Shown piece by piece: positions 1,461 through 27,227 of a stretch of 36,666 nucleotides of DNA. The stretch comes from a virus. Each line of letters starts with the position of its first letter. Position 1 is the first letter of the stretch. The notes beneath the pieces are model-generated. The model worked only from the letters and a program-made list of their open reading frames with translations. It did not search any database and was not told the DNA's origin. Both the position numbers and the translations under genes were made by a program. The stretch is from the IMG/VR virus record IMGVR_UViG_3300005077_000057, positions 1 to 36,666 of that record; one strand, 5' to 3'.

Positions 1461-1596
1461 AGGCGAAAATTATTAAGAATATGAGTAAAGTTATTAACAG
1501 CAATAGGTTCAGATAGAGGCCGGCTCTTTTAGCGTCTTTGGCACGCCTCAATTCAAGTTCTCTTCTTTTAACTATCTTGCGAAAATGATTAACCAT
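1447..1596 (-). CDS. Small basic protein with a C-terminal TM segment (49 aa); possible lysis accessory.
   Basis: Hand-translated MVNHFRKIVKRRELELRRAKDAKRAGLYLNLLLLITLLIFLIIFAYGTK. It overlaps both neighbours by a few codons. Not in the ORF track (<60 aa). Confidence 0.3.
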   Translation of the reverse strand: MVNHFRKIVKRRELELRRAKDAKRAGLYLNLLLLITLLIFLIIFAYGTK

Positions 1597-1891
1597 ATTT
1601 GATAAAGTTATCGGGGCTTACCGCCTTATCATCAACATAAAAATCTGCCCATAGCTTATTGTTGTTAAGCGAATGATATTTGACTCCATGTTTTTTGAGC
1701 CAATATCTTGTGGCAGGAATTACTGAATCACCCCGACAAGTGTATAAAATTATAACATTCCTTTTATAATAAAGAGCGTTTATTTTATCTATGAGTTTTT
1801 TATTTGGTTTAGCCCGAAGAACTTGCTTATCAGTCCAAGCATTGCTCTTGGTAATTGTGCCGTCTATGTCCACAGCGTATATTTTTCTCAT
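1589..1891 (-). CDS. HAD-superfamily phosphatase-like protein.
   Basis: N-terminal DxDGT motif (IYAVDIDGTIT), a later TCRG motif and a YVDDKA acidic motif. Small capless HAD architecture. Confidence 0.7.
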   Translation of the reverse strand: MRKIYAVDIDGTITKSNAWTDKQVLRAKPNKKLIDKINALYYKRNVIILYTCRGDSVIPATRYWLKKHGVKYHSLNNNKLWADFYVDDKAVSPDNFIKYG

Positions 1892-2710: not shown

Positions 2711-3514
2711 TCAATAGTAGGCGATGTATTCGGACTTGATGGACTTGATGGTGTGGAAGCGGTCATCTGCCACTTCCAGCTCCACAATCCACCCGCCGAC
2801 TGTGTTGGGAAGGCCGTAGCGAACCGAGAGGTCGTTGGGCTTTTGGAAACAGCCCGGCAGGAAAGCGTGAATGTTGCGATAAAATATCTGGAGAGTGGCG
2901 TGGTAGTGGCCCAAGATGTAAATCTGGGGCTTCTGACCAGCGCCGATTTTCTCCAAATACTTCTGCAACTTATAAGAAAGAGCGTAAGAAGTTCCACCGC
3001 CTCCGTGATGGAGTCCGATTTTCACCCCGTTGAGAATGACCGTAGCGTCATAATCGCCGAGATAAATCATATCCTTGCGGAGTTTGGACAAGGCCGACCC
3101 GAAGTTTGCGCCGGAGTCCGTCTTGTAAGAAAGGCAGTGATTGCCATTGATGAAATATGTCTTACCCTTGAACTTCGGGTAATTTTCTCTGACATATTCC
3201 AACTGGTCATCAAACCCGAACACCGTCAAGTCATTCACCTGTCCGGCGTAAATCCTGCCGGAACCGGCGACAATATCCCCAGCGTTCACGACTTCCTTGA
3301 TGCCCTCCTTCTCGCACCGTTTGTAGAAGTCGTGCAGTTCGGAAAGAGCGCACGATTTGTCGCACAAGTGGGTATCCGAAACGATGCCGAACTTGTATCG
3401 TGCTGTCTTTCTTGGCTCTTTGACCCTCACTTTGACCGCTTTGGGCTGGAGCAACCGCTCCAAGTCCTTCGCCGTCAAGCCCTTGCTTTTCAGCAACTCT
3501 TGGAGCTTGTCCAC
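2711..3514 (-). CDS. Calcineurin-like metallophosphoesterase.
   Basis: Ordered motifs VSDTHL (DxH), NAGDIV (GD), INGNHC (GNH), GLHHGGG and ILGHYH (GHxH). GTG start with a GAGGAGG Shine-Dalgarno 6 nt upstream. Confidence 0.85.
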   Translation of the reverse strand: MDKLQELLKSKGLTAKDLERLLQPKAVKVRVKEPRKTARYKFGIVSDTHLCDKSCALSELHDFYKRCEKEGIKEVVNAGDIVAGSGRIYAGQVNDLTVFGFDDQLEYVRENYPKFKGKTYFINGNHCLSYKTDSGANFGSALSKLRKDMIYLGDYDATVILNGVKIGLHHGGGGTSYALSYKLQKYLEKIGAGQKPQIYILGHYHATLQIFYRNIHAFLPGCFQKPNDLSVRYGLPNTVGGWIVELEVADDRFHTIKSIKSEYIAYY

Positions 3515-3999: not shown

Positions 4000-6741
4000 T
4001 TATTTTTTATTTGCTTTTTTCCAGATGTCAGTTAGTTGGGATTTGGTTTTAATATTTTTGGCATCAAATATATTAACTACCTCAAAATCTTTTATACCAA
4101 CAAAACCTTTCTCTTTTAATATCTCTACTGCCATCGCATATTTCTTTCCTACCATCGCACCTTGTTTTTTTGCCAATTCTAACGCTTTTTCAAAATCATT
4201 AACATTTGCTAATTTCCCAGGAGCATAAGCCTCAACTACATTGCCATAAGAACTCGCCATTTCTTTAGCATTTACACTTATTTTAGGTAATGGATTGTCG
4301 GAATAAAAATAGATTCCCTTACCATAAACACCCGTATTCTCGGCATCCCTAAACTCATTAAAATCTGCTTTTGTCCCGTGATACAAAGGTTCTCCCTGTC
4401 CTTTTACAAACTCCTCCGCACTCTTATACTTCTTGGCTTCCGAAAGGAGGTCATCTGTTTTATCAATGACAGTTCGTTTATATTTTTGCAAATCAACCCA
4501 TTTTCCGTTTATTTTAATTTCTAACATTTCCGGTGGAATATTTTGCCCGGTAACATAAGTCCCCTCTCCGCCAGCCAACAAATCCACATCTAAATCTTTG
4601 GGTTTATAGCTTGTTTTAGTTCTCAACATCACATCGTTGTTGCCACCATAATATTTTGCCCCCTCTTCATTAGCAGAAAAAGACAGCTTATTGTTAGACG
4701 AAACTCCTTCAAACCGAGCTTTTTTACCGGTGACCAATCCTTCTTTTGCTATGCTTTCTAAATTATCTACCGGCGTTGTATGGTATAGATTTCTTGATTT
4801 TTTAGTTACCAAGTCATTCCGCTCTAATTTAATTCTTCTATTTAATTCTTTATAATACGGGCTTTCTAATTTTTCCACCAGATTTTTATAAGAACCCTCT
4901 TGCCACATTTTTTTAAGCTCTTCATTGTTCATCTTGCTCAATTCACCTGATTTACCAGCAATAGTTTTCTTTGAAACTTTATCAATCTTTATACCAGTTT
5001 TTGCTAATTCATCGGGGTTCATTGTGGTAACATCTTTTATTGACAGGCCCGCCGGAATATTTTTTGCTTTGGTTTCAAGTTTTTGGGCCATTTCATCTAT
5101 GGCTTGATTCAGCACAGCTAATTCTGCTTTGGTAAGTTTAATACCACGCTTCATTTTACTAGTAAGATTATTCAAAAATGGCTGTAAAGCTCTTTTAAGA
5201 AGCCCGTATTGGCGCAGAATTGCGATAGCAAGCTGTGGAGATGTAAGCACTTGACCTATTAAAGCGCCGACTAAACCACCGGCGGCAAAACCACCGCCAA
5301 CACCGATTAGTGTTCTCCCATAAGAACCGACTTTTTGTCCTTGTGCGTAACCTATGTCTTCAATAGCTCGTAATATCCTTAAATCTTCTTCAATATCTGG
5401 GATTATTTTCTTTAAGCGTTCTAAAACCGGCTGTCTCCCTTCCTTTGTAAGATTAGCTATTTTTGATAATGCGTTGTCTTTTAACTCACCGGTCAAGGGG
5501 TTCAGATATTCTTTCTTTATTTGCTTCAACATTTTAACTTCGGGAGCGTATTTAGCATCTAATTCAGCCAACCCTTTAATTTTAGGGCGAAAAAATTTAT
5601 TAAACTCTTCCCGGATAGTTTCTCCGACCAACTGCGAAGCTGATGATTTTCCCGATGCAACTTCATATTTTGCCATTTGTGCCAACGCCTCTCTTGTATT
5701 CAAAAACTCATCTGCCGTATAAATACCGCCAGTTCCATATTCTCTCATAAACTTCTCAATGGCAGTGGCATCAGATGTTGTAATTGGTTTTGAAGCCTTT
5801 GAAGTTATCACTTTTCCAGTATCATCTAGAAAAATCTTAAATCTATTTTCCAATATGTCTTTGAAAAAATTATCCGGCACTTCAACTTTTTGTGCCGATG
5901 TTCTTAATGTGTTATACCCAGTCCCAATATCAGACAAATCATCCAGTCTTTTGACAATTCCTTGATAGACACGAGAACCGATGGCCTCACGACTAACCGC
6001 CTTCATTTCAGATTGGGTAAAGGCTTTGGGGTTCAAGATTACTTCTTTAATAGTTTTTGGACTTAATCCTGTCGCTTGTGCAACAGCGAACTCCGTTGTC
6101 TTGGCGACACCAGTCCCAAGTTTTTTAGCACCCTTTAACGCCAATTCGCCACCTTCTTTAAGAGCTGGCTGCACTATATCTTTGGCAACAGAACCAGCCA
6201 CTTTTGCGCCTCTACCTATTGGAATAACCGAAGCGATATTTCCAGCGGCACGAATATTTGCTTGCGTTCTTGGACTTAATCCACCGTAAACATCCATTCC
6301 AGATTCAATAGTCTTGCCTATTGTTTGGCCAACAGGAGTTTTTGCTATCTCGCCAATTCCATATTTTGCCACCTCACCGATACCTTTTTCAATAAAATCT
6401 GGCGTTACAGCTTTTGCGCCTTCAAACAAAATATCCCCAGCCAACCCAATAGTTTCGCCAACTGTTTGCCCAACAGATTCTCCGAGAGTTTGCTCACCAG
6501 CAGACTGACGGGCATAACCCTGCGACAGGCTTTCAGCGCGCTTTCCAAAAGACTCTTTGATATTTTGAAAAAATCCCTTTTTTTCTGTTTGTGTAGTTTC
6601 GGGTGTCTTAAAAGAACCATCAAGAACTCTTTGGTATTCCGGATATTTTTCCATTGTCATACGCCCCAAATCAGCATCATTGATGCTGTCATATTGAGGA
6701 TATTTTTTTTTAACTGCTCTACCAAACTCTTCTATTGTCAT
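4000..6741 (-). CDS. Large virion-associated (internal/ejection-type) multidomain protein with a C-terminal tandem ADP-ribosyltransferase-like region.
   Basis: 913 aa. Contains a glycine-zipper TM-like segment (IGVGGGFAAGGLVGALIGQVL). C-terminal motifs are NLYHTTPVDNLESIAKEGL...LSFS...EGTYV and PLYHGTKADFNEF...GVYGKGIYFYSD...VVEAY (H-Y-E pattern). Located in the tail/internal-protein block. Confidence 0.55.
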   Translation of the reverse strand: MTIEEFGRAVKKKYPQYDSINDADLGRMTMEKYPEYQRVLDGSFKTPETTQTEKKGFFQNIKESFGKRAESLSQGYARQSAGEQTLGESVGQTVGETIGLAGDILFEGAKAVTPDFIEKGIGEVAKYGIGEIAKTPVGQTIGKTIESGMDVYGGLSPRTQANIRAAGNIASVIPIGRGAKVAGSVAKDIVQPALKEGGELALKGAKKLGTGVAKTTEFAVAQATGLSPKTIKEVILNPKAFTQSEMKAVSREAIGSRVYQGIVKRLDDLSDIGTGYNTLRTSAQKVEVPDNFFKDILENRFKIFLDDTGKVITSKASKPITTSDATAIEKFMREYGTGGIYTADEFLNTREALAQMAKYEVASGKSSASQLVGETIREEFNKFFRPKIKGLAELDAKYAPEVKMLKQIKKEYLNPLTGELKDNALSKIANLTKEGRQPVLERLKKIIPDIEEDLRILRAIEDIGYAQGQKVGSYGRTLIGVGGGFAAGGLVGALIGQVLTSPQLAIAILRQYGLLKRALQPFLNNLTSKMKRGIKLTKAELAVLNQAIDEMAQKLETKAKNIPAGLSIKDVTTMNPDELAKTGIKIDKVSKKTIAGKSGELSKMNNEELKKMWQEGSYKNLVEKLESPYYKELNRRIKLERNDLVTKKSRNLYHTTPVDNLESIAKEGLVTGKKARFEGVSSNNKLSFSANEEGAKYYGGNNDVMLRTKTSYKPKDLDVDLLAGGEGTYVTGQNIPPEMLEIKINGKWVDLQKYKRTVIDKTDDLLSEAKKYKSAEEFVKGQGEPLYHGTKADFNEFRDAENTGVYGKGIYFYSDNPLPKISVNAKEMASSYGNVVEAYAPGKLANVNDFEKALELAKKQGAMVGKKYAMAVEILKEKGFVGIKDFEVVNIFDAKNIKTKSQLTDIWKKANKK

Positions 6742-6750
6742 ATTTTAATA

Positions 6751-8760
6751 TTAAACTCTGGCTAAACCAGTAATTTTTGATATCGGTATTGTTCTTGTTC
6801 TAATTTTCTCATCAAGCCCATAATTGCTATCTCGGACAACTACTGTTCCATCATTATTTACAGCCACGACAAACCCAGTATGCCCAGTGTCTTTATATGG
6901 AGTCACAAATACCATTCCGGGTTCTGGGTATTTAATAGTTTTATCCATTTTAGATATTTTGCTTTGGTAGCTATCACCAAGCGATAACTTATATCCTGTT
7001 AGCTTATTCACAAACTGACCACATTGGCCACCTTTTTCTCCATCCTTAAATGATAAAACTTTATTTAATGTAGCTGTAGGTGTTCCGCTACCACCTTGAT
7101 TAAAACCGAGATTTATCGGGTCCTGGTTAGATGGATTATATGCAGGACCAGCTTCGTTAATAAAGTTTCTCTTTACCAAATCTCTATTTGCTTTTTTTGT
7201 TTCCAAAACTTCCGCTGAATCACCGGGTTGTGAGAAATATTGCTGACGAGCATTAGCAAACTCTTCCGGACTAATCACCGCACCAGATTCACGCCTTAAT
7301 ACTGCATTGATAAAGTTTCGTTGAGCCTGTTCAAATCTTTGCCTGTCTGAACTTTTCATAATGTTTGGCAACTTTTCACCAATATAACTTGCCGCACCGA
7401 TAAACTGATTTTCCAACTCATCAATTATTTTAGTAGATTGGTCAAGACGAGAAGCATAATTCGCTACTGTATATTGAGCTTGCGTAAGGGGTTTCCCAGA
7501 GGAAGAACTAATCCAATCAGCGTAAGTTTTACCCGTTCCTTGTTCTCCGCCAGCAAGCGACCATTCTTGGAACGAAGATGGTGTATCAGACAAACCACCC
7601 ATTTCAGAAGATAAGTATGGAGTTGAATATTCAAGCGCCAGCTCCATATTTCCAGAAGCAACTATTTGTCTAACTAAATCAGATGGCGCACCGTTTTGTG
7701 CGGCCTGTGTAGCAAGGCTCATTATAGATGCTCTTTCGTCTTTTCTGGCATCTATTTCTCGTTGCCTTTCTTCCAGTTGTATGCTTATTTGGTCAGCCTT
7801 CAATTTATCTGCCCGACTTAAATTGTCGTATTCATATTTTATTAAAGAATCCAATTTCTTTAACTCTTGTTCTTGAGCATAAAACTCCAAGTTAATTGTT
7901 TGTTCAGCAGTTTGTTGAGCAAGAGCAATATTGCCTTGAAGTGCCTGTTGAACCGAAGTCAAAGCACCTATTTCAGCGGCCTTTTGCATTCTCATTTGTG
8001 CTTGCTGACCGGTGATAAACTGCATTGGAATTGGTTTGCCGGAAATATCAGTAATACCCTTATCGTAAGCACCTGAAAGTTGGGCGATTTGCAGATTTAA
8101 GTCTTGTAATTGTTTTTGTTGCTCTGGTATTCCGAGTCCTTGTTGAACCTCACTTAATCTTTGTCCGGCTGTTCCCATTTTATCAGAGGTCGCTGAATAC
8201 TGGTCTATCAAGGAGTTTAATTTACCGGTTGACGGGTCAACCGTTGTAGGTAATGCCGGAGTAGCATTACGCAATCCAGTAACAAACTCATCGGGATTTA
8301 CATTTGGATAAGATTCAATAGACTGTGGTGTTCTCGCCCCGTTGCCTAAACTATCAGCAGGGATTGAATCCGGAACATTAAATTGTGGCTGCGGTTGCGC
8401 AACATTAACAGATGATTTTTTCTCTAATAATCCAGTATTCGGGTTTAACACATACGAACCAGAGCCAACAACGGCTGGGGTTACAGCTTGGGTTGCTGTG
8501 GCATTTTGTGGTAAAGACAAAGCCGTCCCACTAACAACGGCCTGCGCCTTTTGTTGCGTAGAAGTTGGATTGGTAGTGAAAGCCGGAGGTGGTGCGGTGT
8601 TATAAGTTAATGGTGAAGCCTGTGATTTCGGCTGTTGACTACTCATAACAGAATTATAAGTATTCAAGGTATTTGAAACAGCCTGTGATTGTGGAAATAC
8701 AGCTTGAAATGCGGTTTTCGCAAAATTAAGTCCTTTGGACATCCAAGATGGGAGTGCCAT
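6751..8760 (-). CDS. Virion-associated peptidoglycan hydrolase with a C-terminal CHAP domain.
   Basis: 669 aa. P/Q/T-rich N-terminus, Q-rich coiled-coil middle, and a C-terminal GGQCGQFVNKL (Cys) ... DTGHTGFVVAV (His) ... DSNY signature typical of CHAP. Confidence 0.7.
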   Translation of the reverse strand: MALPSWMSKGLNFAKTAFQAVFPQSQAVSNTLNTYNSVMSSQQPKSQASPLTYNTAPPPAFTTNPTSTQQKAQAVVSGTALSLPQNATATQAVTPAVVGSGSYVLNPNTGLLEKKSSVNVAQPQPQFNVPDSIPADSLGNGARTPQSIESYPNVNPDEFVTGLRNATPALPTTVDPSTGKLNSLIDQYSATSDKMGTAGQRLSEVQQGLGIPEQQKQLQDLNLQIAQLSGAYDKGITDISGKPIPMQFITGQQAQMRMQKAAEIGALTSVQQALQGNIALAQQTAEQTINLEFYAQEQELKKLDSLIKYEYDNLSRADKLKADQISIQLEERQREIDARKDERASIMSLATQAAQNGAPSDLVRQIVASGNMELALEYSTPYLSSEMGGLSDTPSSFQEWSLAGGEQGTGKTYADWISSSSGKPLTQAQYTVANYASRLDQSTKIIDELENQFIGAASYIGEKLPNIMKSSDRQRFEQAQRNFINAVLRRESGAVISPEEFANARQQYFSQPGDSAEVLETKKANRDLVKRNFINEAGPAYNPSNQDPINLGFNQGGSGTPTATLNKVLSFKDGEKGGQCGQFVNKLTGYKLSLGDSYQSKISKMDKTIKYPEPGMVFVTPYKDTGHTGFVVAVNNDGTVVVRDSNYGLDEKIRTRTIPISKITGLARV

Positions 8761-12920: not shown

Positions 12921-13784
12921 TTATCTTATAAATAATACATCTTGATTTTTTGCTAAATTGACAAATTGTTGCCATTTTTTGCTATTTTTAGGTCCTGTTA
13001 ATTTAACCATCATCTCCAACGCTTCCTTGAAGTCAGCGTTTATCAGTATTGCTCTTAAACAATATGCTTTCGCCATATCGTATTTTTTCAGATTACAACA
13101 GCATTTCGCTATTTGTAGGTTGGCTTCAGACATTTCAGGTGGCCACCACGCCTTTTTCAAGTAATCTTCATACCAGAACATTGCCGTCTCCCAGTCCTTT
13201 CTATACCAATACTCGCGTGCCAGATAAAACTTTTCTCTTATACAATTCGGGTCTTTAATCACTTCCTTGCCCAGTATTCTTAACGCTCTATCAGGGTCTT
13301 TTTTGTGAGCATCGCTATATCCGTATTTGATAACTATTTCACTTGTTGTTTTGGCGACCATTGTCAGATAATTGTGTATTGCTCCTTTCCAGTAAATCTT
13401 TGGTGTCCGCCTAAATACTCTGGGAAATAAAAAGTGTTCTTTCGCTCCGTTTTTTGGTTTTAATATACAATGTAATAATTGCTCGTCAGAATACTTTGCT
13501 ATTTCGGCTTTCAGCACATCCACGCTCTCCAAAACTTCGTCAGCATCTATTGATAATATCCAATCGCCAGTAGCTTTGCTCAAAGCGTGATTACGAGCTT
13601 CGCACATACTGTCGTTCCACTTGTAGTCGGTATAAATCTTGTCGGTATAGCGTTTTGCTATTTCAATCGTATTGTCTTCGCTTCCTGTATCACAAATAAT
13701 AATCTCATCAAGTCCTTTAATGCTTTCCAAACATTCTTCAAGACAACTCTCTTCATTTTTTACGATTAAAACCGCACTTATCAT
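12921..13784 (-). CDS. Family-2 glycosyltransferase fused to a TPR-like C-terminal domain.
   Basis: ISAVLIVKNEESCLEECLESI ... ICDTGSEDNT ... SIDADEVL (DxD). The C-terminus has repeated helical W/Y-rich TPR-like units. Confidence 0.8.
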   Translation of the reverse strand: MISAVLIVKNEESCLEECLESIKGLDEIIICDTGSEDNTIEIAKRYTDKIYTDYKWNDSMCEARNHALSKATGDWILSIDADEVLESVDVLKAEIAKYSDEQLLHCILKPKNGAKEHFLFPRVFRRTPKIYWKGAIHNYLTMVAKTTSEIVIKYGYSDAHKKDPDRALRILGKEVIKDPNCIREKFYLAREYWYRKDWETAMFWYEDYLKKAWWPPEMSEANLQIAKCCCNLKKYDMAKAYCLRAILINADFKEALEMMVKLTGPKNSKKWQQFVNLAKNQDVLFIR

Positions 13785-13786
13785 AA

Positions 13787-13960
13787 TTACGATGGTTTAG
13801 TTGCGTTAGACCAAGTTGATGTTGGTTTAGTTGCGTTAGACCAGTCAGAAGCCCGTGATAAAACTATCTTGTCGCCGTTCTCCAATAACAGATAGTAGGC
13901 ATCTTCCTTTAACAGAAAGGAATTGGTCAATGATGGTTTTGTCTCGTTTGTCCAACTCAT
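13787..13960 (-). CDS. Small repeat protein (57 aa) with W-x-N-x-TKP-S/T repeats.
   Basis: Hand-translated MSWTNETKPSLTNSFLLKEDAYYLLLENGDKIVLSRASDWSNATKPTSTWSNATKPS. ATGA-coupled to the upstream gene. A 20-bp exact DNA repeat (ggtttagttgcgttagacca) lies at a 30-bp period. Confidence 0.45.
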   Translation of the reverse strand: MSWTNETKPSLTNSFLLKEDAYYLLLENGDKIVLSRASDWSNATKPTSTWSNATKPS

Positions 13961-14685
13961 ATGTTTTCTTTTAGATAATCTTTAACCGTCATTCTTGGCG
14001 GGAACATCTCTTGAAACTTCTTGGCGTAATATGTTTTGATGTTCTGTTTCATTTTTTCATACTCTTTTTCCAGTTTGGCGTAAGCGTCATTGCCTTGCGG
14101 TTTAGAAAACCAATAACGGATAGACGCTCCAACTGGGATAACTCCGTGAAACTCGGCGATAAATCCGGGTGTAGCGGTGGTATCGGTTGAAACAAAGTCG
14201 TGAGAACCCCTATCAAAATACACTCGTAAAGATGAGGCCTGTGTGTAATCGGATGCCGGATAAATCGTCATAGTGTCGCCAATAAGCGTGTAATATCTCG
14301 GTTGTCCGTCAGTAGTGTAGAACTCGCTAATCGCTCCGGGTATTTTCTCGGTCGGTAGTGGCTCTAACTTATGCCAAATGCTGTCCTCGTTCATAACCTC
14401 TACTCGCCTGACCGTGTATGTTCCTGTTGGCAGAGCATAGGTGCTTTGTGCCGAAGTTATAGTCGCTGTGGCGATAGGCAAATCTGTTTGGTTGCTGTCT
14501 TCATACTGCCAACCACCATAAGCGTCAAAAATCACGCTCCAAATCTCTCTGTTCACATCATTGGCATAAGCGGTGAACTTTTTAAGCAATGTTGAGTTGC
14601 CACTAATTCCCGTATTGCCTAAATTACAGTAATCTTCGCAGAGCTGTATAATTCCATTTAATCCTGAAGTGTCTGAAAAAACCAT
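13957..14685 (-). CDS. Structural protein, possible head-tail adaptor / tail tubular A-like.
   Basis: ATG at 14685 lies 4 nt after the HNH stop. The alternative ATG at 14739 would overlap the HNH gene by 50 nt. Assignment by position between the head and tail blocks only. Confidence 0.4.
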   Translation of the reverse strand: MVFSDTSGLNGIIQLCEDYCNLGNTGISGNSTLLKKFTAYANDVNREIWSVIFDAYGGWQYEDSNQTDLPIATATITSAQSTYALPTGTYTVRRVEVMNEDSIWHKLEPLPTEKIPGAISEFYTTDGQPRYYTLIGDTMTIYPASDYTQASSLRVYFDRGSHDFVSTDTTATPGFIAEFHGVIPVGASIRYWFSKPQGNDAYAKLEKEYEKMKQNIKTYYAKKFQEMFPPRMTVKDYLKENI

Positions 14686-14689
14686 ATAG

Positions 14690-15256
14690 TTATTTTTTAT
14701 GTATTTTAATATGGCAGTTCTTGCACAAAGTAATGCCATTATTTATATCAAATCTTAATTCTTTATATTTAGCCCAGTGTTTTATGTGATGAGCGTTTAA
14801 ATTGTGTCCTTTATTATCTCCGCATAACTGACAAGCATAGTCATCTCTTTCAAAAACTGATTTTCTCCACTCAATCGCTTCTTTTCTGTTTCTCTCAAGT
14901 AAATTTATTTCTGTTAATCCACCCTTCCATTTATAAGCATTTTCTTGACGATAGTGTTTTGGCCAACAATTTTTACAATAAGTAATTTCTTTTCTAAAAT
15001 TATACCTATACTTTAATTGTTTTCCACAATCAGCACATACGCTTTTTCCTCCTCTATAATTTGGGTTTTCTTTTCCTGAAATAGCAGAAGATTGAAAAAT
15101 TCCTCTACATTTTCTAGAACAAAACTTACTCTTCTTATACTGTTCTGGACTAATCCTTTTACTATTAGCAACAGTATTTCTAATAATTTCATTACCACAA
15201 ATTATACAAAATCTTCTTTCCAATTCTATTTTTCTTTTACTTCTACCGTCCCGCAT
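14690..15256 (-). CDS. Free-standing HNH homing endonuclease.
   Basis: C-terminal CQLCG...NLNAHHIKHW...NNGITLCKNCHIKIH (HNH with a zinc-binding CxxC pair). N-terminal CxxC-rich region. Markedly AT-rich relative to its flanks. Confidence 0.85.
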   Translation of the reverse strand: MRDGRSKRKIELERRFCIICGNEIIRNTVANSKRISPEQYKKSKFCSRKCRGIFQSSAISGKENPNYRGGKSVCADCGKQLKYRYNFRKEITYCKNCWPKHYRQENAYKWKGGLTEINLLERNRKEAIEWRKSVFERDDYACQLCGDNKGHNLNAHHIKHWAKYKELRFDINNGITLCKNCHIKIHKK

Positions 15257-15266
15257 AAAGTCATAT

Positions 15267-15947
15267 TTAGTGTTTAGCTTGATATTTATTTATATCCTTT
15301 GTTGTTTTGCTGTTGAATAGTTTAGTGTTGTTCGCTACGCAATGACCGCCTATCTTGCCTTCCGTATATTTCAATACTGGTCTTACTACTTCGGGTCGGC
15401 CAAGTTTTATGTATCCCTCGTTATAGGTTTGGTTGGCATCTGTATAAACCAAGTCAAAATCTACTTTGTGTTTCTTACACCAATTAAATATCTCCTTGTT
15501 GAGCAGTATCATTGCGCCGTATTGCGTGGTGGACCATAGTTTAAGTGCTTCCGTATCGTTAGAGCTTTTGGTTGTTTTGGTTTTAATTCCAAATGTCTCA
15601 AAGTATTTCGCCGCTTCCCTTGCCTGTTCGCCACCAAAGTATTTTACAAATGTTCTTATCCCTTCTTCCAAGTGAGGGTGAACGCCCCTAACTGGGGAGT
15701 GAACCACGCCAAGTTTCTTACAAGTCCCAACTGGAACTGTGGAATGGACTATCGTAATTTTTGGCGTAAATCTTTTAATGTATCCCTTTACCGTGCTATT
15801 AAAATAATTTGAATACGGAATGCAGATATGAATAATATCGTAATGTTTTTCTTCATATTTGCCTTCCAAGCGGTCAATGTAATCACCGCCAACTACATTA
15901 TGAATGCCCTTACCAATTTCACCGTAGCCAATAATTAAATTAGTCAT
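15267..15947 (-). CDS. NAD(P)-binding nucleotide-sugar dehydrogenase-like protein (short form).
   Basis: N-terminal Rossmann motif LIIGYGEIGKG. TEALKLWSTTQYGAMILLNKEIFNWCKKHKVD and GKIGGHCVANNTK resemble the central and catalytic-Cys segments of UDP-glucose/GDP-mannose dehydrogenases. Confidence 0.5.
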   Translation of the reverse strand: MTNLIIGYGEIGKGIHNVVGGDYIDRLEGKYEEKHYDIIHICIPYSNYFNSTVKGYIKRFTPKITIVHSTVPVGTCKKLGVVHSPVRGVHPHLEEGIRTFVKYFGGEQAREAAKYFETFGIKTKTTKSSNDTEALKLWSTTQYGAMILLNKEIFNWCKKHKVDFDLVYTDANQTYNEGYIKLGRPEVVRPVLKYTEGKIGGHCVANNTKLFNSKTTKDINKYQAKH

Positions 15948-16974
15948 AGAACGCTTTTATTTTAGTAATAATAAAATCTTGTTCTTCTTCGGTTAATTTA
16001 ATTCCGCAAGGCAAGCATACTGTCGTTTTATAAATCGCATCACTACTCCAAGTTCCATATTGCTTATACATTTTTTGCGTATGAATTGGCACAAAGCCCG
16101 GTCTTGTCTCTATATCAAATCTCGCTAAATAATCCATCAAAGTTTTGGCGTTAGGCGTGTTATACGGATACATCCAAAACGAACCTGCTCGCTTGATATA
16201 AGATGAATTGCCATAATTTGATAATTCTTTCGTATATTTATCCGCTATTCTCTTTTTAATAAGGTTATGCTCATCAAGTTTTTTAAGTTGTGAAGCTCCA
16301 AGTGCGCACTGCATAGCCCCCATACTCATACCGTAGCCGACTTTATTGTGCATATACTGCCCAGTTCGGTATTGGTCTTTTAATAATTTAATCTCTTTGG
16401 CAATGTCTTCATAATTCGTCACCACCATACCGCCCTCGCCTGTGGTTATAACCTTGTTGGCAAAGAACGAGAAACAACCAATATCGCCCTGTGAGCCAGC
16501 CATAAACCCTTCAACTTCTGCTCCAATAGCTTCCGCCGCATCTTCTATCACCGGAACACCATAGGATTTCAGTGTCGCCATATCGCAAGGTATCCCGTAT
16601 GTATGAACCGCTATAATTGCCTTTGTTTTTGGCGTTATTTTAATCTTATCGGCCATTATATTCAGCGTGTATGGTTCACTATCAACCAGAATTGGCGTTG
16701 CGCCTGTGTGCGATACCGCATTAGCTACCGCAATAAATGAAAAATCTGGCACTATAACCTCGTCTCCCGGCCCTATTCCTAACGCTTTTAGTGCGATAAA
16801 CAGCGCAGAAGTGCCTGAATTGACCGCTATGGCGAACTTCACGCCCATTTTCTCGGCAAATGCTCTCTCAAAATCATCACAAACGGCTGTTCTGCCCGAT
16901 AATTCGTTATTTTCAAGGCATTTAACCACCGCTTCAATGTCTTCTTTGTCTATATTTGGCTCGCAAATGTTCAT
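15940..16974 (-). CDS. DegT/DnrJ/EryC1/StrS-family PLP-dependent sugar aminotransferase.
   Basis: AVNSGTSALFIALKALGIGPGDEVIVP ... DAAEAIGA ... FSFFANKVITTGEGGMVVT (Schiff-base Lys). Length 344 aa. Confidence 0.9.
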   Translation of the reverse strand: MNICEPNIDKEDIEAVVKCLENNELSGRTAVCDDFERAFAEKMGVKFAIAVNSGTSALFIALKALGIGPGDEVIVPDFSFIAVANAVSHTGATPILVDSEPYTLNIMADKIKITPKTKAIIAVHTYGIPCDMATLKSYGVPVIEDAAEAIGAEVEGFMAGSQGDIGCFSFFANKVITTGEGGMVVTNYEDIAKEIKLLKDQYRTGQYMHNKVGYGMSMGAMQCALGASQLKKLDEHNLIKKRIADKYTKELSNYGNSSYIKRAGSFWMYPYNTPNAKTLMDYLARFDIETRPGFVPIHTQKMYKQYGTWSSDAIYKTTVCLPCGIKLTEEEQDFIITKIKAFYD

Positions 16975-17495
16975 AAATCGTAGTGTGCTATTAAATAACT
17001 TCTTCCTATAAATCGTTTAGAATGTATTGTCTTGACCGTGCCGTTAGGCAGTAAATCAAGCAAATCCTGCTCGCTAAACTCCCATAAATGCTCCGGGTCA
17101 TCAAACTCCAAGTGCGGTGTAGATAATATAATTCGCTTCCTTGCCAGTCGCACCATCTCTTTTATTAAAAGTTCGGGTTTTTCTAAATGCTCAATCACTT
17201 CCCCAGCCACCACCGTATCAAATGATTTATCTTTGAAAGGTGTCCGTAGAATATCAGCGCAAACAAACTTCGTTTCAGGATATAGTTGTTCGCATTTTGA
17301 TATTGTGCGTGGTGAATAATCCACTCCGACACCGCCTATCACATCAGCAAATGGCGATAAACCACATCCCAAGTCAAGCACCGTGCCGATTACTCTTTTA
17401 GCGTATTCTCTCTGCCGTAGTCCGAAGTCCATAGCGGTCTGGTGTTCATCCCAGTAATTCGGCGTGTTTATATTGGCAGTAGTTAATCGCTTCAT
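16971..17495 (-). CDS. Class I SAM-dependent methyltransferase.
   Basis: Motif I VLDLGCGLSPF, then FDTVVAGEVIEHLEKP. ATGA overlaps on both sides. Confidence 0.8.
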   Translation of the reverse strand: MKRLTTANINTPNYWDEHQTAMDFGLRQREYAKRVIGTVLDLGCGLSPFADVIGGVGVDYSPRTISKCEQLYPETKFVCADILRTPFKDKSFDTVVAGEVIEHLEKPELLIKEMVRLARKRIILSTPHLEFDDPEHLWEFSEQDLLDLLPNGTVKTIHSKRFIGRSYLIAHYDL

Positions 17496-18577
17496 ATACC
17501 CACAACTATTGGTTTATCTCGCCAATTTATTACCTTTGTTTCATAACCGACCTCTTCAAGCATCTGTTTCATATCCTCTACCGCAATGCCGTAAAATCTA
17601 TCGTGATAAGCCATTTTGCGTAAATTGCCCTGCATCACTACCGACTTACAACTCTTTCTTATTTGTCTCAAAATCTCTTTTTTGTTTTTTAGGTGATAGA
17701 TAACATTTAGCAATAAACAGGTATCGTATTTGTCAATTATTTTATAAGTATTCAAGTCAGCCACTTCAAATGTTATCGGTAAATCTCTTTTGTTTAGTTT
17801 TTCAAATATCAGTTTGTTAGTCCAAGCTCCCTCTACGAACTTGTAATCTACGCCGTGAGCGATACTGCCCTGTAATGCCGACTTAATTGACATCAGCCCT
17901 TCATTACATCCCAAGTCCAACACTTTTTTACCGATTAAATCTTTTATCACCGGCCACCTATCGTCAGCGTTTTCTCTATAAATAAAAGGCACATTTTGCT
18001 CCAAGTTTTTGAACTCGCCGTAATCTATCAAGTAGTAGTTCGGGCCAAGTCCTATCTCACGGGCTTTTGTTTTTCTTTTCAGCCACTCCCAAGATACTCC
18101 CTCCCAATGAAACGCAAACTCTTTAACTTCAATTTCAGGTATCTGTAAGTAGTGAGCAACTAAGCTCCTGTGTGAGCCATCAAACTTCTCGCCTGTCCGC
18201 TCTACACATACTCCGCCATAGTGTCCCAAGTTCTTGTTAAATCCTGTTCGCATTGAGGTCAGTATCTCTTTTAATGAACGGATTTTAACATCAACATAAT
18301 TATCACCTTTTATTTTCCCCCAAAAGCTGTAATATCTCGTATCTTGGAACTTTATATCGGGGTTTTTGTCTATCTGCTCTATTGTTTCTAAAACTGGGTG
18401 ATAATCTATCTCATAAAACTTTTCTGTGTTTTCTTCCCACACTATCGGCTTACTGCGGTCTTCCTCTGGCTCTAACTGGACAAAATCTGTCGGTTTAATT
18501 GACTTCCAAACGAACTTATCAGCACTCATTAAGTCGTGCCTTTGTTGCCAAGTTGTCGTGTGAAAATCAAATGTCAT
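17492..18577 (-). CDS. Two-domain protein: ParB/Srx-like N-domain plus a class I SAM methyltransferase.
   Basis: N-half has VCVERTGEKFDGSHRSLVAHYLQIPEIEV (DGxHR-type motif). C-half has KVLDLGCNEGLMS ... YDTCLLLNVIYHLKN. Confidence 0.6.
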   Translation of the reverse strand: MTFDFHTTTWQQRHDLMSADKFVWKSIKPTDFVQLEPEEDRSKPIVWEENTEKFYEIDYHPVLETIEQIDKNPDIKFQDTRYYSFWGKIKGDNYVDVKIRSLKEILTSMRTGFNKNLGHYGGVCVERTGEKFDGSHRSLVAHYLQIPEIEVKEFAFHWEGVSWEWLKRKTKAREIGLGPNYYLIDYGEFKNLEQNVPFIYRENADDRWPVIKDLIGKKVLDLGCNEGLMSIKSALQGSIAHGVDYKFVEGAWTNKLIFEKLNKRDLPITFEVADLNTYKIIDKYDTCLLLNVIYHLKNKKEILRQIRKSCKSVVMQGNLRKMAYHDRFYGIAVEDMKQMLEEVGYETKVINWRDKPIVVGI

Positions 18578-19509
18578 AATGATAGATATTTTGGTTTTAA
18601 TGTTTTCCAGCTATTTTGTTTAGCCCACTCTTTGCCCATTAAAGAGTATTTTGATATGTCTTTGCCATACCACTCGTCTATTTTCTGGGCTATTTTTTTA
18701 GGGTTAATTATGGCGCAATCAAACTCTGCTCCAATACGCTTTTTTACATATCCATCGTGGTCTATCAATAATTCTTTTGGCAACCAAGTATTTGTCGGAA
18801 ATCTGTCGCTGGCCATTACCGGAATACCACTCGCATACGCTTCTTGCATCGGCAAAAATGAACCACCAAACTTTTCAGGAAATATCAGTATGTCGCCGTC
18901 TTTCCATAAATCCTCATAGGGCATATCACCTCTAAATATCTCTACTCTTGTGTCATCGCTTTTCAAATCAAGGTTTTGGGAACGCACTTTTAATTTAATC
19001 GGGCTTTTAACATACTTCATCGCTTCCAATAGTTCCTTTGTGCCGTTTCTACCGCCCAGTCCGCCGTGTCCGGCATTGTGTATAAACACTTCGGCTCGCT
19101 TTCTTAACTTCCATTTCATATCCACCGGAACATTTATGTATTGGCAAGGTATCTGGCATCCTAATCTTTTGTAATGCTCAACCTCAATTTCGCTTCCACC
19201 CACCAATACATCGGGATAATAAGGAAAAGGATACTGCGTGCATTCATACATCGCTAATAATATTGTTTTAATCCCCTTTAATTTTGCTTCTGGTATTACC
19301 TTCCAATTAAAAGGAGTTTCAAAGAACATTAACTTGTCGCATTCGTATAAATCCTCTATCCGATTAACCCTCTCCTTGCCATACCAATTCTCTGTCTTAT
19401 AAGAGGAGTGCGGATATACGAATATTTTGTCTATTATGCCGTGGTCAATAAAGGATTTTGCTTGTATCCCCAGTCCGCTTTGTGTGGCATAGCAAATCGT
19501 GCCTATCAT
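18574..19509 (-). CDS. GT-B fold glycosyltransferase (GT1/GT4-like).
   Basis: DILIFPEKFGGSFLPMQEAYASGIPVMASD matches the E-x7-E / GT4 C-terminal donor-binding signature. Confidence 0.7.
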   Translation of the reverse strand: MIGTICYATQSGLGIQAKSFIDHGIIDKIFVYPHSSYKTENWYGKERVNRIEDLYECDKLMFFETPFNWKVIPEAKLKGIKTILLAMYECTQYPFPYYPDVLVGGSEIEVEHYKRLGCQIPCQYINVPVDMKWKLRKRAEVFIHNAGHGGLGGRNGTKELLEAMKYVKSPIKLKVRSQNLDLKSDDTRVEIFRGDMPYEDLWKDGDILIFPEKFGGSFLPMQEAYASGIPVMASDRFPTNTWLPKELLIDHDGYVKKRIGAEFDCAIINPKKIAQKIDEWYGKDISKYSLMGKEWAKQNSWKTLKPKYLSL

Positions 19510-20447: not shown

Positions 20448-20449
20448 AG

Positions 20450-24167: not shown

Positions 24168-25948
24168 ACTTCTTGCATTAAAGCGTCTTGTTTAGGCGCT
24201 GGGGCCATTTGCCCGCCACCCTGTGGCATACCAGTTCCTTGTAGCATTGGGTTTTCTTGTCCTTGTTTAACACCGGCCAGAGTATCGTAATTCTCTCCGG
24301 TCAAAGCAAGTATCTTGCCTAACACCTTTTCAGCAGCTTGCGGGTTGGTCTGGGATAGCGTGTTATACAGGTTGGTTAATGTTTCTAATCTCTTTTCAAG
24401 GTTCACGCTCTCGCCAGTAATCACTAATTGCGTGGATACTTTCAAATTATCCCAAAACTTTTCAGGTAAATTAACCGCTTGGAACTTTCGGTTTTTAATC
24501 TTTTCTTCTACGGCCATTTTAATCGCTTCCGCATCCGGCAGTTTGCCTTTCAATAACTCGTCTTTATACATCTGCCAAACATACACTTTTTCCACTTCTT
24601 CCATTAACGCCTCTACACCCTCTTCTCCCATTGGTATCATCATCGTCTCGGCTTTGTTGTTTTCTTTTTTGAATATCGGGAATAGTTGCTCATATACCAC
24701 ACTCTCAAAGAATAAGCCCAAGTTCTCTCGTTTCAAGGCAAAGTGAGCGTTCACGGCGTTGCTCATCACCACACCTAATCGGAACGGAGTGCCGGAAGGC
24801 ATAGCTTCACCAGTCGCCACTTCAAAGGTAAATGATTTCTGGTTGCTGTTCTCGTCAATCTCATTGGTAGCGGCTTGAAACTCGGCCAAGCTCTGTGTAG
24901 CGGTATTAACCTGTGTAATGTTGCCGTTAGGCATTATCTTCAATACTTGCCCGTCTTTTACATCTCTGACCAAGTTCTTGGCTATCTCGGTGTCGGTGCT
25001 TTGGAATATCTTTTTTCCAGCCCAGAGCAAACCTCGTCTTCGCAAGTTAGTAATCATATTGCGGAAGATTTGGTTTTCAAACTGATTTTCTATCTCACCC
25101 ACACCAAGCCATCGGCCATCCACTCTTGCCCAATGAACTTCCTCGTATGGTCGTTCATCTATCTCTTCCAAGAATAATATCGTACCACCCTCAAACTCGT
25201 CTTTATCGTTCTTTAACGGAGCAAGGATAGCCATTACATCAATGCTTTTCTTGTCATCACCGTCTTCAACCTTTTGGTCTTTTCGTCTTTTATACCAATC
25301 AAGCGGAACTCTGCCGTATCTCTCATAAATAGTAATCTTTTCATCCCAGTCAATTTTCAAATCTTCCAAGTCCCAGTTTTTCATTTTCTCCAAGTCAGCA
25401 TAAGTCCAGTCCTTGTGTTCCTCAATTACATATCGGGCTTCTTGTAGGTTTTTAGCGTCTTGTTGGCAACGGAGTGTCATCAAGGGAACACGCTGTAATT
25501 CCTTGCCCACTTTTTTCATTACTGATGAGCCGTATTTCGGATAGTCAGCCACTACTTCGTTTATCAGTTTGCCAAAATAGTTCTTTTTAGCCCACTGCTT
25601 GAACTTGCGATTAAGAAAGAATGAACCCCACTCGCTGTTCGGCTCATCCGGCACAAACAGGAAATCCTTTACATCAATATCTACCTGTTTTGAAGCTACA
25701 TCTGCTTTGAACTTTGATATGTTTAGGAATACTTTGCGTTGTCCTTCGCTGTCTTTGTTGCCACTCTCAAACTGCGAATTGTAGTAAAGCTCAATCAGGT
25801 TAAGTGTTTCCCATTGAGAAAACTCAAAACCGCTTCCAGTTGTTCGTGGATTGTCTGATTGGACACCAGCTATCTTTACTTTCTCTTGAAAGAAGTCCTT
25901 TAATTCCTTTTGTAGCTGTCCGAATATGTTAAATCCTGTTTTATTCAT
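24164..25948 (-). CDS. Portal protein.
   Basis: 594 aa, immediately downstream of and overlapping TerL by 8 nt. Size and position are typical of portals. No independent motif check was possible. Confidence 0.7.
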   Translation of the reverse strand: MNKTGFNIFGQLQKELKDFFQEKVKIAGVQSDNPRTTGSGFEFSQWETLNLIELYYNSQFESGNKDSEGQRKVFLNISKFKADVASKQVDIDVKDFLFVPDEPNSEWGSFFLNRKFKQWAKKNYFGKLINEVVADYPKYGSSVMKKVGKELQRVPLMTLRCQQDAKNLQEARYVIEEHKDWTYADLEKMKNWDLEDLKIDWDEKITIYERYGRVPLDWYKRRKDQKVEDGDDKKSIDVMAILAPLKNDKDEFEGGTILFLEEIDERPYEEVHWARVDGRWLGVGEIENQFENQIFRNMITNLRRRGLLWAGKKIFQSTDTEIAKNLVRDVKDGQVLKIMPNGNITQVNTATQSLAEFQAATNEIDENSNQKSFTFEVATGEAMPSGTPFRLGVVMSNAVNAHFALKRENLGLFFESVVYEQLFPIFKKENNKAETMMIPMGEEGVEALMEEVEKVYVWQMYKDELLKGKLPDAEAIKMAVEEKIKNRKFQAVNLPEKFWDNLKVSTQLVITGESVNLEKRLETLTNLYNTLSQTNPQAAEKVLGKILALTGENYDTLAGVKQGQENPMLQGTGMPQGGGQMAPAPKQDALMQEV

Positions 25949-27227
25949 AAGAAGTTATTTCTATATTATTTCCCTTGTTATCTACTAACATTTTTTGAAC
26001 TCCGCTTAATTTTGCGGTTGATTTTGATGGTATATTCCATACAGACAGGGCCAGAGAGAACACGCAGTCATCGTGAAGCCCATCAGGCACTTCTATTCTC
26101 GTTCTGCCTCTATCGGTTATGTTGTATCTAAAACTTTGTAATTCGTTTAATAAAATATCATCGTTGGGTATTTTTATTCTGCTTTGTTCCAGTAGTATTT
26201 GTAAATTAACCAATAAATCTCGTCTGCTATTTTCGGTAAATCTATAAGCATTTACTCGTATGCCGCGCTGGTATAAGTCATCGTATATCGGCTCTCCAAC
26301 GCCAGTGCTGTCCATATTAACAAGGCCATTAAAGTATCTGCGGTATGAGGCCTCTATCTTTGTTTTCTGTAAATTGTAATCTATTTGGTTAAAGCGGTCT
26401 TGTTTCAATACTTTAAATTGTGTCATATCAAACGGCGTAATCACCGTGTAGTCCATTGTCTTGGCCAAGTCCACGCCTAATTGATACAGGTGGCCGTGTT
26501 CCTCTTTATCGTTAGCTTCGTAAGTGTTCTCCATTACTCGCTTAAAGAATGCACCAGCTCCCTCTATGAACTTACAAAAGTATTCTTGCTCTATAATATC
26601 CTGTGGGTTTGTTTTGCGTTCCTCTTCAAGGTCTTCATCGGATAATACTTTGGTCTCTTTAAGCGTCAGTATCTCCCAAAACCATTTGGTATTCTCTTTT
26701 GCTTGCTGTAATAGCTTCCAAGCGTGATTTTGTCCTCGTGGCGTGAAATTGAATACTGCCCATCCGCCATTAACCGCTAAAATCGGAGCTAAATACTTCC
26801 ACGCTTCAGGGTCAGTTATTGAATACTCGCTAAACACCACACCAACAGGATTTGTTCCGACACCGGACTTCTTGAACTCATCAGCGCCGATAAGCTGTAT
26901 AATTGAACCATTAACCAGTTCCACTTTTAGTTCGGTAGCGTTGGTGTTTTTCACCAGTTCCTTCGGTATATGGTCAAGCATTCTAAACCCGTCATTATCT
27001 ATATTGTCCCAAATCACTTTCTTTCCTTGAGAATAAGTTGGGAGAAAATAGTAATAAGTTCCGATTCTCTCAAATGCTTTCTTAACCGTGTAGTTGAAAC
27101 ATACTTTATCCTTTCCGCTTCGTCTGTTCCACACCAAGATAGCTCTTTTACAGCCGGAGTCCATAGCTCTTAAAAATGGTAGTTGATACGCTCTGGGCTT
27201 GAAATTGTAAGGCACTTCTATGTTCAT
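25941..27227 (-). CDS. terL: Terminase large subunit.
   Basis: Walker A-like VWNRRSGKDKV. C-terminal nuclease-type acidic motifs (GVDLAKTMDYTVI, DGLHDDCVFSLALSVW). 428 aa. Confidence 0.85.
   Translation of the reverse strand: MNIEVPYNFKPRAYQLPFLRAMDSGCKRAILVWNRRSGKDKVCFNYTVKKAFERIGTYYYFLPTYSQGKKVIWDNIDNDGFRMLDHIPKELVKNTNATELKVELVNGSIIQLIGADEFKKSGVGTNPVGVVFSEYSITDPEAWKYLAPILAVNGGWAVFNFTPRGQNHAWKLLQQAKENTKWFWEILTLKETKVLSDEDLEEERKTNPQDIIEQEYFCKFIEGAGAFFKRVMENTYEANDKEEHGHLYQLGVDLAKTMDYTVITPFDMTQFKVLKQDRFNQIDYNLQKTKIEASYRRYFNGLVNMDSTGVGEPIYDDLYQRGIRVNAYRFTENSRRDLLVNLQILLEQSRIKIPNDDILLNELQSFRYNITDRGRTRIEVPDGLHDDCVFSLALSVWNIPSKSTAKLSGVQKMLVDNKGNNIEITSYE

Follow-up and report, generated by a model that had tools for sequence, protein, structure and literature searches.

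Enzymes injected together with phage DNA act ahead of phage gene expression, and very few of them have been studied experimentally; the classic cases are Alt of phage T4 and the virion RNA polymerase (vRNAP) of phage N4. The subject of this study is a candidate for such a role, a 913-residue protein ending in two tandem ADP-ribosyltransferase (ART)-like units, encoded by the viral record IMGVR_UViG_3300005077_000057 of IMG/VR (positions 1 to 36,666; this whole stretch of 36,666 nucleotides is referred to below as the window). Among the modifying domains of polyvalent proteins ARTs occur most often, and their injection is predicted, with T4 Alt as the experimental precedent for an injected ART (PMC5512222, PMC9503650). 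The ART-PolyVal family (PF18760; the N4-ART / Tox-ART-HYD2 clade), which belongs to the polyvalent proteins of phages and conjugative elements, has been described as H-Y-D (Iyer et al. 2017, PMC5512222). Podoviruses possess no tape measure and use internal proteins for envelope crossing, and gp27 is one of four proteins packed inside the capsid of cyanophage A4 (PMC12002296). A further point of reference is Tpt1, whose essential Arg-His-Arg-Arg set has three of its four members (Arg16, His17 and Arg64 in RslTpt1) in the N-terminal lobe (PMC6097658).

The general idea of injected, ART-bearing polyvalent effectors is already published. What is new at this locus is a carrier family, a family of stand-alone, Tpt1-like ART cassettes (unit 1), the recurrence of such a cassette with a second ART unit (unit 2) placed after it, and codon-conserved linkers. 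We regard it as nearly certain that both units are ART-fold homologues, and think it likely that the 913-residue protein is virion-associated; judged from the sequences, it is also rather likely that at least one unit is catalytically active. The combined picture that we favor, with a probability of roughly 0.55, is that of an ejected podovirus effector carrier whose ART cargo ADP-ribosylates host targets. In this picture the folds and kinship of the domains, the conservation of their key residues, the exchange of cargo on the carrier and the gene order are shown, and packaging, ejection, catalysis and targets are inferred. The protein thus described offers a compact and testable example, with a conserved carrier, a well-preserved H-Y-E ART and a second, Tpt1-like ART module; if active, both domains would reveal which host molecules are modified by a podovirus at time zero.

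Organization of the 913-residue protein

The principal elements of the protein, in order from its N-terminus, are as follows.

4000..6741, minus strand: the whole 913-residue open reading frame (ORF), longest in the window, comprising a helical carrier and two ART-fold cassettes
4942..6741, minus strand: N-terminal carrier, spanning residues 1 to about 600 and shared by 37 listed homologues
5254..5304, minus strand: glycine-zipper, transmembrane-like segment GVGGGFAAGGLVGALIG, residues 480-496, from hydropathy and the family alignment
4483..4812, minus strand: unit 1, a minimal ART fold resembling the C-lobe of Tpt1/KptA, residues 644-753, from profiles, model and Foldseek
4774..4785, minus strand: Y-H-T-T of unit 1, residues 653-656, on beta-strand 1, from sequence and model
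4003..4488, minus strand: unit 2, an ART-PolyVal-type domain including its bracketing linkers, residues 752-913, from profile, model and fold matches
4405..4431, minus strand: linker A, KYKSAEEFV, residues 771-779, from peptide and codon conservation across loci
4372..4383, minus strand: YHGT of unit 2, residues 787-790; the H788 column is His in 24/27 relatives
4303..4323, minus strand: GKGIYFY of unit 2, residues 807-813; the Y811 column is Tyr in 16/27 relatives, otherwise Ser, Phe, Trp or His
4225..4242, minus strand: NVVEAY of unit 2, residues 834-839; the E837 column is acidic in 24/27 relatives (19 Glu, 5 Asp)
4021..4047, minus strand: linker B, TKSQLTDIW, residues 899-907, from peptide and codon conservation across loci

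The initial annotation of this sequence had proposed that the largest encoded protein, of 913 residues, ends in tandem ART-like units, each opening with Y-H-x-T, and had suggested profile and Foldseek searches of the C-terminal region as a check. This description is borne out. All the motif strings that had been quoted were located, namely YHTT, LSFS (residues 686-689) and GGEGTY (residues 724-729) in unit 1, and YHGT, GKGIYFY and NVVEAY in unit 2; the range first assigned to the pair, 4003-4791, corresponds to residues 651-913, and unit 1 begins slightly earlier, at about residue 644 (nucleotide 4812). Searches with the last 299 residues returned two non-overlapping sets of relatives, marking the units as separate homology modules: P0001-P0007 match residues ~620-760 at 48-74% identity, P0001 spanning unit 2 as well, and P0008-P0040 match residues ~760-913 at 25-43% identity, many of them carrying a precomputed PF18760 assignment. 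The family profiles of the two units align to each other (hhalign probability 92%, E 7e-7), and each unit was placed in the ART superfamily by both profile and fold searches.

Unit 2, a divergent relative of ART-PolyVal

Unit 2 displays the H-Y-D/E active-site configuration in the form H788, Y811 and E837, as had been predicted along with its likeness to polyvalent-type ARTs. The AlphaFold2 model is confident (predicted local distance difference test, pLDDT, 91.2; predicted template modeling score, pTM, 0.84); it sets LYHGT, IYFY and NVVEAY on strands and renders the two linkers as confident helices closing the domain. This model and matches in BFVD show the hallmarks of the ART superfamily fold, a split beta-sheet with a His on strand 1 for binding nicotinamide adenine dinucleotide (NAD+), an aromatic residue on strand 2 and an acid on a later strand. 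Thirteen BFVD matches were obtained at E<=1e-3, E values ranging from 7e-6 to 3e-4 for ART-PolyVal and PARP proteins, and those bearing names are mostly called "PolyVal ADP-ribosyltransferase", "ART-PolyVal-like" or "PARP catalytic domain". By sequence, unit 2 scores 23.6-27.6 bits against PF18760 (E 1e-4 to 5.7e-6), and among 27 aligned relatives PF18760 is matched by 15 (best 1.2e-17), DUF3990 by six and the PARP catalytic domain by four; a search of the unit 2 profile against PDB sequences returned nothing but a chance match to ribosomal protein L18. We have filed unit 2, on its sequence, as a divergent relative of ART-PolyVal and not as a formal member of PF18760, because its own score lies under the family threshold even though 15 of the 27 relatives match. 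Like ART-PolyVal domains, it has its His on strand 1, its Tyr on strand 2 and its acid on a later strand, and it resides in a multi-domain protein among virion genes, with tandem copies possible. It departs from them in having Glu where the family is H-Y-D, in a sub-threshold match confined to the first ~60 profile positions, in being bracketed by two highly conserved linkers, and in riding on a carrier that represents a new helical family, not MuF, portal or N4 vRNAP.

Among PDB structures, Foldseek ranked chain B of the cyanophage A4 pre-ejectosome (9k3a_B; E 9e-5, probability 1.0) first as a fold match to unit 2. This chain is most likely gp27, given the sequence match and the chain length (1071 residues, longer than gp28), gp26 being possible by length. 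The unit 2 profile aligns to residues 1424-1458 of gp27 of phage A-4L (LYHGT...GSGTYFS; hhalign E 2.3e-3, probability 13%), and gp27 later carries IHEV and VGVDAL..LVINPDAV, paralleling NVVEAY and GFVGIK..VVNIFDAKNI of unit 2. In Anabaena phage A-4L (locus L001, 20116-25269), residues ~1420-1600 of gp27 can be viewed as an unannotated ART-PolyVal-like domain. As a lead, then, gp27 of a solved pre-ejectosome appears to contain such a domain; the searched portions of the structure's description do not mention ADP-ribosylation (PMC12002296). A4/A-4L gp27 and the window protein are alike in being large podovirus internal proteins, the latter by our reading, with C-terminal segments that resemble each other in fold and motifs; they differ in that the remainder shows no detectable similarity, and the gp27 domain has been annotated as an ART neither by the authors nor by Pfam.

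Unit 1, a module of the Tpt1/KptA-DarT branch

Unit 1 alone gave a borderline match to archaeal KptA over SRNLYHTTPVDNLESIAKEGL (E 0.18), which improved to E 0.013 with a profile of eight close relatives. A 40-sequence profile searched against the PDB matched KptA at 1.3e-6, Escherichia coli DarT1 at 5e-4 and PARP16/14/1/15 at 0.04-0.2. The fold search against the PDB agreed: the top 19 matches were all Tpt1/KptA (E 1.5e-3 to 5e-2, template modeling (TM) scores 0.47-0.58), followed by ARTD13, CC0527, pertussis and cholera toxins, PARPs and DarT. Compared with Pfam, the 40 family members matched DUF7002 (15/40), PARP (11/40, best 8.9e-6), PTS_2-RNA (9/40, best 2.8e-4) and ART-PolyVal (2/40). 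An exhaustive HMMER search of 1.84 billion representatives placed 149 clusters in the family at E<=1e-3, 49 of them at <=1e-30; no Pfam model captures this module of at least 149 sequence clusters in public data. H654 is invariant in 40/40 diverse members, and T656, I664, G668, L669, R707, E741 and W748 are nearly so; unit 1 presents an ART fold with the strand-1 His in an H-x-T context.

The earlier view of this first unit as DarT/Tpt1-like stood as to kinship, Tpt1/KptA and then DarT being its closest relatives by profile and fold, with two corrections: the Tpt1 N-lobe is absent, and Ser687 occupies the position of the triad Tyr. Identification of unit 1 as a Tpt1 was rejected, because the N-lobe with three of the four essential residues is missing and only C-lobe positions align: NCBIfam NF002013 is matched over positions 87-119/183 (16.5 bits vs a cut-off of 231), the unit 1 profile aligns to residues 84-151 of the KptA PDB chain, and the ~45 residues upstream of unit 1 form a helical linker. 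DarT was also rejected as an identification, the Pfam DarT model PF14487 matching at E 0.093 over positions 1-26/201 only, that is, the first motif; no DarG-like macrodomain gene was found in the window. Sequence and model together suggest that unit 1 is, by descent, a Tpt1-like NAD+-binding C-lobe module of the Tpt1/KptA-DarT branch. It shares with Tpt1/KptA (PF01885; PDB 9ld3, 8tfz, 1wfx, 6e3a) the C-lobe pattern LYH(G/T)T...NL.SI...GL, the strands that follow and the terminal IPPE.LE strand, and differs in lacking the N-terminal winged-helix lobe with its Arg-His-Arg, in possessing its own near-invariant Arg707, Glu741 and Trp748, and in occurring as a ~110-residue cassette in large phage proteins. 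With DarT, the ART of single-stranded DNA thymidine (PF14487; PDB 8baq, 7omx), it has in common the N-terminal YH.T..NL.SI..G motif, the DarT1 profile match and membership in the same branch, of which DarT is a nucleic-acid-directed representative; however, only ~35 residues align, there is no DarG-like partner, and unit 1 is much smaller.

A conserved carrier with exchangeable cargo

The N-terminal carrier is represented by 37 listed homologues (plus P0104, P0143 and P0203) of 486-1064 residues, many from contigs of 30-43 kb; identities are 28-43% for most and 20-22% for the three weakest, and one listed entry, P0044, is identical to the window protein. A glycine-rich hydrophobic segment, LIGVGGGFAAGGLVGALIG (residues 478-496), has the top Kyte-Doolittle score of the protein (1.78) and is flanked by residues that are nearly invariant in the carrier family (G468, G472, Y474 and P502), in agreement with the glycine-zipper, transmembrane-like segment noted at first inspection. 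The only matches of the carrier profile in the PDB were designed helical proteins and repeats; homology to these was rejected, the resemblance being compositional and helical. Nor did hhalign reveal any relationship of the carrier to gp26, gp27 or gp28 of A-4L.

Beyond residues ~560-600 the carrier homologues diverge in their cargo, and many simply end there without any. Unit 1 alone is found on the carrier in P0046 and P0054, unit 2 alone in, for example, P0048, P0055, P0067 and P0070, two copies of unit 2 in P0059 and P0063, and unit 1 followed by unit 2, as in the window protein, in P0104 and P0203; the same order occurs in P0001, a 381-residue protein on a short contig (2,080 bp) that has no carrier region. 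Other carrier cargo includes Zeta-toxin kinase, GNAT acetyltransferase and ParB-type domains (instances on the carrier or between the linkers: P0058, in L003 10001-13195; P0030; members of alignment A4). Both units also travel independently of the carrier, unit 1 inside giant proteins of 1,000-5,241 residues and unit 2 inside ORFs of 600-2,991 residues on phage contigs, mostly of 20-46 kb. Polymorphic toxins (CdiA, Rhs, MuF-fused) are organized similarly, with a conserved delivery part, interchangeable C-terminal enzymatic cargo and conserved junction motifs; the present system is distinguished from them by being phage-borne, by cassettes bracketed on both sides, by the absence of visible immunity genes and by its own junction motifs, KYKSAEEFV/KSQLTDIW. 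In carrying several effector domains in a late or virion gene the 913-residue protein conforms to the concept of a polyvalent protein, and it does so in part with regard to disparate activities, both domains belonging to one superfamily.

Codon-conserved linkers and possible hosts

Linkers A (upstream) and B (downstream) bracket cassettes of the unit 2 type and are almost invariant, compared with ~27-35% identity between the cores. In multi-cassette proteins the linkers alternate A...B, A...B, and in P0030 they bracket a ParB-like core (DGHHR). Conservation extends to the nucleotide level: at 78 IMG/VR loci the codons of linker A are nearly fixed as AAG TAT AAG AGT GCN GAG GAG TTT GTG, and those of linker B read AAA TCC CAA CTM ACN GAY ATH TGG, with TCC in 31/31, whereas the background frequencies in the same ORFs are 0.36 for AAG, 0.33 for GAG, 0.21 for AGT and 0.08 for TCC. 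The codon-conserved linker loci span L004-L085. When the window was compared with six loci fetched by protein identity and not by DNA pattern, the window and the four motif-bearing loci used identical linker codons. Because nucleotide-level conservation runs against codon bias, these sequences suggest that the linkers act as recombination joints for cassette shuffling, and homologous recombination could move cassettes between carriers and giant polyvalent proteins. Natural payload swapping on a virion protein is suggested by these linkers together with the carrier/cargo boundary, a point of relevance both to the diversification of phage counter-defense and to the engineering of phage-delivered proteins in laboratory hosts.

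In a collection with one genome per species, 26 cassette loci were confirmed (L086-L111), all in metagenome-assembled genomes. About half of these are labeled as Candidate Phyla Radiation (CPR)/Patescibacteria or DPANN archaea, the CPR labels being Saccharibacteria (seven), Parcubacteria/Paceibacterota, Gracilibacteria, Peribacteria and Dojkabacteria; several of the contigs are 34-45 kb long and look like binned phage genomes. A related phage, L082 (Logan SRR27710291 contig, 37,402 bp), ends its genes only with TAA or TAG, whereas 10 of them contain in-frame TGA, 40 such codons in all; since TGA is never a stop in L082, it is read there as sense (code 4 or 25). Contig binning and this TGA-reading relative are the basis for suggesting, from sequence data, hosts among CPR bacteria. 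We entertain tentatively, as a possibility well short of even odds, a fuller scenario in which these are phages of CPR/Patescibacteria with recombining injected-effector cassettes, unit 1 being a new half-Tpt1 ART that acts on nucleic acid at entry. Unit 1 would then constitute a stand-alone family with an H...R...E signature that may ADP-ribosylate nucleic-acid ends or bases; it might even cap 5'-phosphate ends, as KptA/TRPT1 can, shielding the incoming genome or disabling host RNA.

Genomic context and the proposed role

The window is a complete, circularly closing phage assembly of ~36.57 kb (36,567 bp), as judged from terminal repeat comparison, which revealed a perfect 99-bp direct repeat at both ends (1-99 = 36568-36666). 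Nearly all genes lie on the minus strand. In the direction of transcription they begin with the terminase (25941..27227), a 594-residue ORF at the portal position and a sugar-modification cluster, continue with the adaptor, a collagen-like fiber, a Laminin_G_3 protein, a 600-residue protein and a 74-residue protein, and end with the CHAP protein, the 913-residue protein, a metallophosphoesterase, an M23 peptidase and a small membrane protein. Two of these genes bear directly on the interpretation.

6751..8760, minus strand: CHAP protein of 669 residues with a C-terminal CHAP peptidoglycan hydrolase domain, adjoining the 913-residue ORF upstream
13957..14739, minus strand: SU10-type adaptor protein, a marker of podovirus-type tails, by family match

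The genome is taken to be podovirus-type because it encodes the SU10-type adaptor and contains no ORF of tape-measure size; the absence of a tape measure and the adjacency of the CHAP protein had both been remarked on initially and are evident from the gene map. The 594-residue ORF at the portal position has no family match, the portal gave a single distant match among known phage records, and the whole 913-residue protein had no tblastn match in 50,697 phage records. A look-up of sequencing runs and proteomics for this phage returned none.

The gene for the 913-residue protein is the last of the tail/structural block. The order [~500-640 residues]-[73-81 residues]-[460-775 residues]-carrier recurs in the related contigs L002 and L084, and the slot immediately before the carrier holds the CHAP protein in the window (6751-8760), a 775-residue protein with a faint glucosaminidase match in L002 (7611-9938) and a protein with no match on record in L084 (6617-7999). 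The carrier is far more conserved than its gene neighbors.

Four contextual lines of evidence lead us to read the 913-residue protein as probably ejected: its gene stands last in the tail block, behind that of a peptidoglycan-hydrolase protein, in an order that recurs; its C-terminal cargo is swappable on the carrier; it has a membrane-like glycine zipper; and the best PDB fold match of unit 2 is the A4 pre-ejectosome chain. The carrier would ensure that the protein is built into the particle and leaves it by way of the tail, beside the CHAP cell-wall hydrolase protein, and on entry one or both units would draw on the NAD+ of the host and ADP-ribosylate its macromolecules ahead of phage gene expression. 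Protein is the more probable target of unit 2, in line with what has been proposed for its clade; unit 1, like its nearest relatives, would more probably modify a phosphate or base of nucleic acid. ADP-ribosylation on entry is favored because of the delivered-effector architecture, the polyvalent-protein concept and the precedent of T4 Alt. The proposed logic is that of Alt, a particle-borne ART that enters with the DNA and modifies host proteins from time zero; unlike the window protein, Alt belongs to the R-S-E clade and forms a separate protein inside the head of a myovirus, and no sequence relationship was detected.

Contrary evidence and alternative interpretations

A number of observations weigh against the view of an ejected carrier with active ART cargo. 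With regard to unit 2, its PF18760 score is below the gathering threshold of 31.2 bits and aligns only at profile positions 3-62/140; its fold matches to solved PARPs and tankyrases in the PDB are weak (E 0.1-0.5, TM 0.33-0.39); and the superposition on 9k3a_B is poor (root-mean-square deviation 17.6 A over 240 columns). Pfam searches of A-4L gp27 and of four giant unit-1-bearing proteins returned no family at E<=0.01, and the link to A4 rests on Foldseek and a short hhalign match because Pfam is silent on gp27. The unit 1 model, built from eight sequences, is of moderate quality (pLDDT 70.5, pTM 0.69); its Ser687, at the position of the triad Tyr, is Ser, Tyr or Phe across the family, and its candidate acid E726 (in GGEGTY) is conserved only among close relatives. 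Neither the carrier nor its family as a whole matches any family in Pfam or PHROG, and no match was found to known virion, ejection, MuF or portal families. BLAST and phmmer detected no sequence similarity among the neighbors of the carrier gene across related loci, so the argument from synteny draws on order, size and domain type only. Finally, searches of the window for Macro, NADAR and Nudix domains disclosed no ADP-ribose hydrolase or immunity gene, a result that is neutral for a lytic phage.

It is unlikely, in our estimation, that the ART-like domains are pseudoenzymes with a structural or ligand-binding role, devoid of transferase chemistry and serving the internal core or ejectosome as building blocks or as elements that bind DNA or nucleotides, even if the best match of unit 2 among solved structures belongs to the A4 pre-ejectosome as a structural component, and the authors of that structure, in the text searched, say nothing of ADP-ribosylation. 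The substitutions in the Tyr column of unit 2 (Ser, Phe, Trp or His in 11/27 relatives), the few relatives without the His and the sub-threshold Pfam score would suit such a role, as would the Ser at the Tyr position and the want of a conserved beta-5 acid in unit 1. Yet unit 2 of the window protein keeps the full H-Y-E triad, and the invariant His and near-invariant Arg707 and Glu741 of unit 1, over 40 members, are typical of a maintained active or ligand site. In relatives, moreover, genuine toxin or enzyme domains (Zeta toxin, GNAT, ParB) occupy the same position on the carrier, and the cargo is not needed for structure, because many carriers do without it.

We consider it improbable, too, that the protein is made late and left unpackaged, residing in the cytoplasm or outside the particle in association with tail or lysis functions, with the ART modifying host or phage components late in infection. 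Its gene does border both the tail genes and a block containing the metallophosphoesterase, the M23 peptidase and the small, holin-like membrane protein, and the product lacks homology to known internal or ejection proteins. Its position after a large protein bearing a peptidoglycan hydrolase is conserved, however; a carrier with variable cargo has the architecture of a delivered effector; the same cassettes occur in giant polyvalent-type proteins; and podoviruses, which have no tape measure, cross the envelope by means of internal proteins (PMC12002296).

Quite unlikely is the proposal that one of the domains, or both, would hydrolyze NAD+ as glycohydrolases or process NAD+ derivatives in place of transferase activity, serving for instance to blunt immunity signals based on NAD+ or ADP-ribose (ADPr) at entry. 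ART folds do include NADases, packaging of phage NAD+/ADPr enzymes as a counter to host signaling has often been predicted (PMC9503650), and unit 1 is a bare NAD+-binding lobe with no obvious substrate-binding lobe. Both units have transferases as their closest families (ART-PolyVal/PARP and Tpt1/DarT), with the proviso that sequence does not discriminate hydrolase from transferase.

That unit 1 is a working RNA 2'-phosphotransferase of the Tpt1/KptA type, engaged in phage RNA repair with the phosphoesterases encoded downstream (2711..3514 and 1589..1891, within 2.5 kb), is highly improbable, since the kinship with Tpt1/KptA in sequence and fold is offset by the lost N-lobe with three of four essential residues (PMC6097658), the fragmentary NF002013 match, the failure to find an RNA ligase or kinase in the window, and the lack of conservation of the downstream genes beside carrier homologues.

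Other genes of the window

Just downstream of the ORF for the proposed effector carrier lies the gene for a calcineurin-type metallophosphoesterase (2711..3514), and further on a 100-residue ORF (1589..1891) resembling HAD_PNKP (E 2.2e-5, below threshold). Both folds are used in nucleic-acid end healing, and the genes are not conserved beside carrier homologues. Within the structural region is the ~8.5-kb sugar-modification cluster (window 12921-21414), which encodes GT2- and GT1-type glycosyltransferases, a DegT/DnrJ aminotransferase and several S-adenosylmethionine (SAM) methyltransferases; a related set (epimerase, aminotransferase and methyltransferase) is present in L084. The cluster may serve to glycosylate virion proteins or the host surface. 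An HNH endonuclease gene (window 14690-15256) overlaps the start of the adaptor gene, and two DNA methyltransferases, of the N6/N4 type and the C5 type (27251-27832 and 30349-31611), are also encoded and presumably serve anti-restriction.

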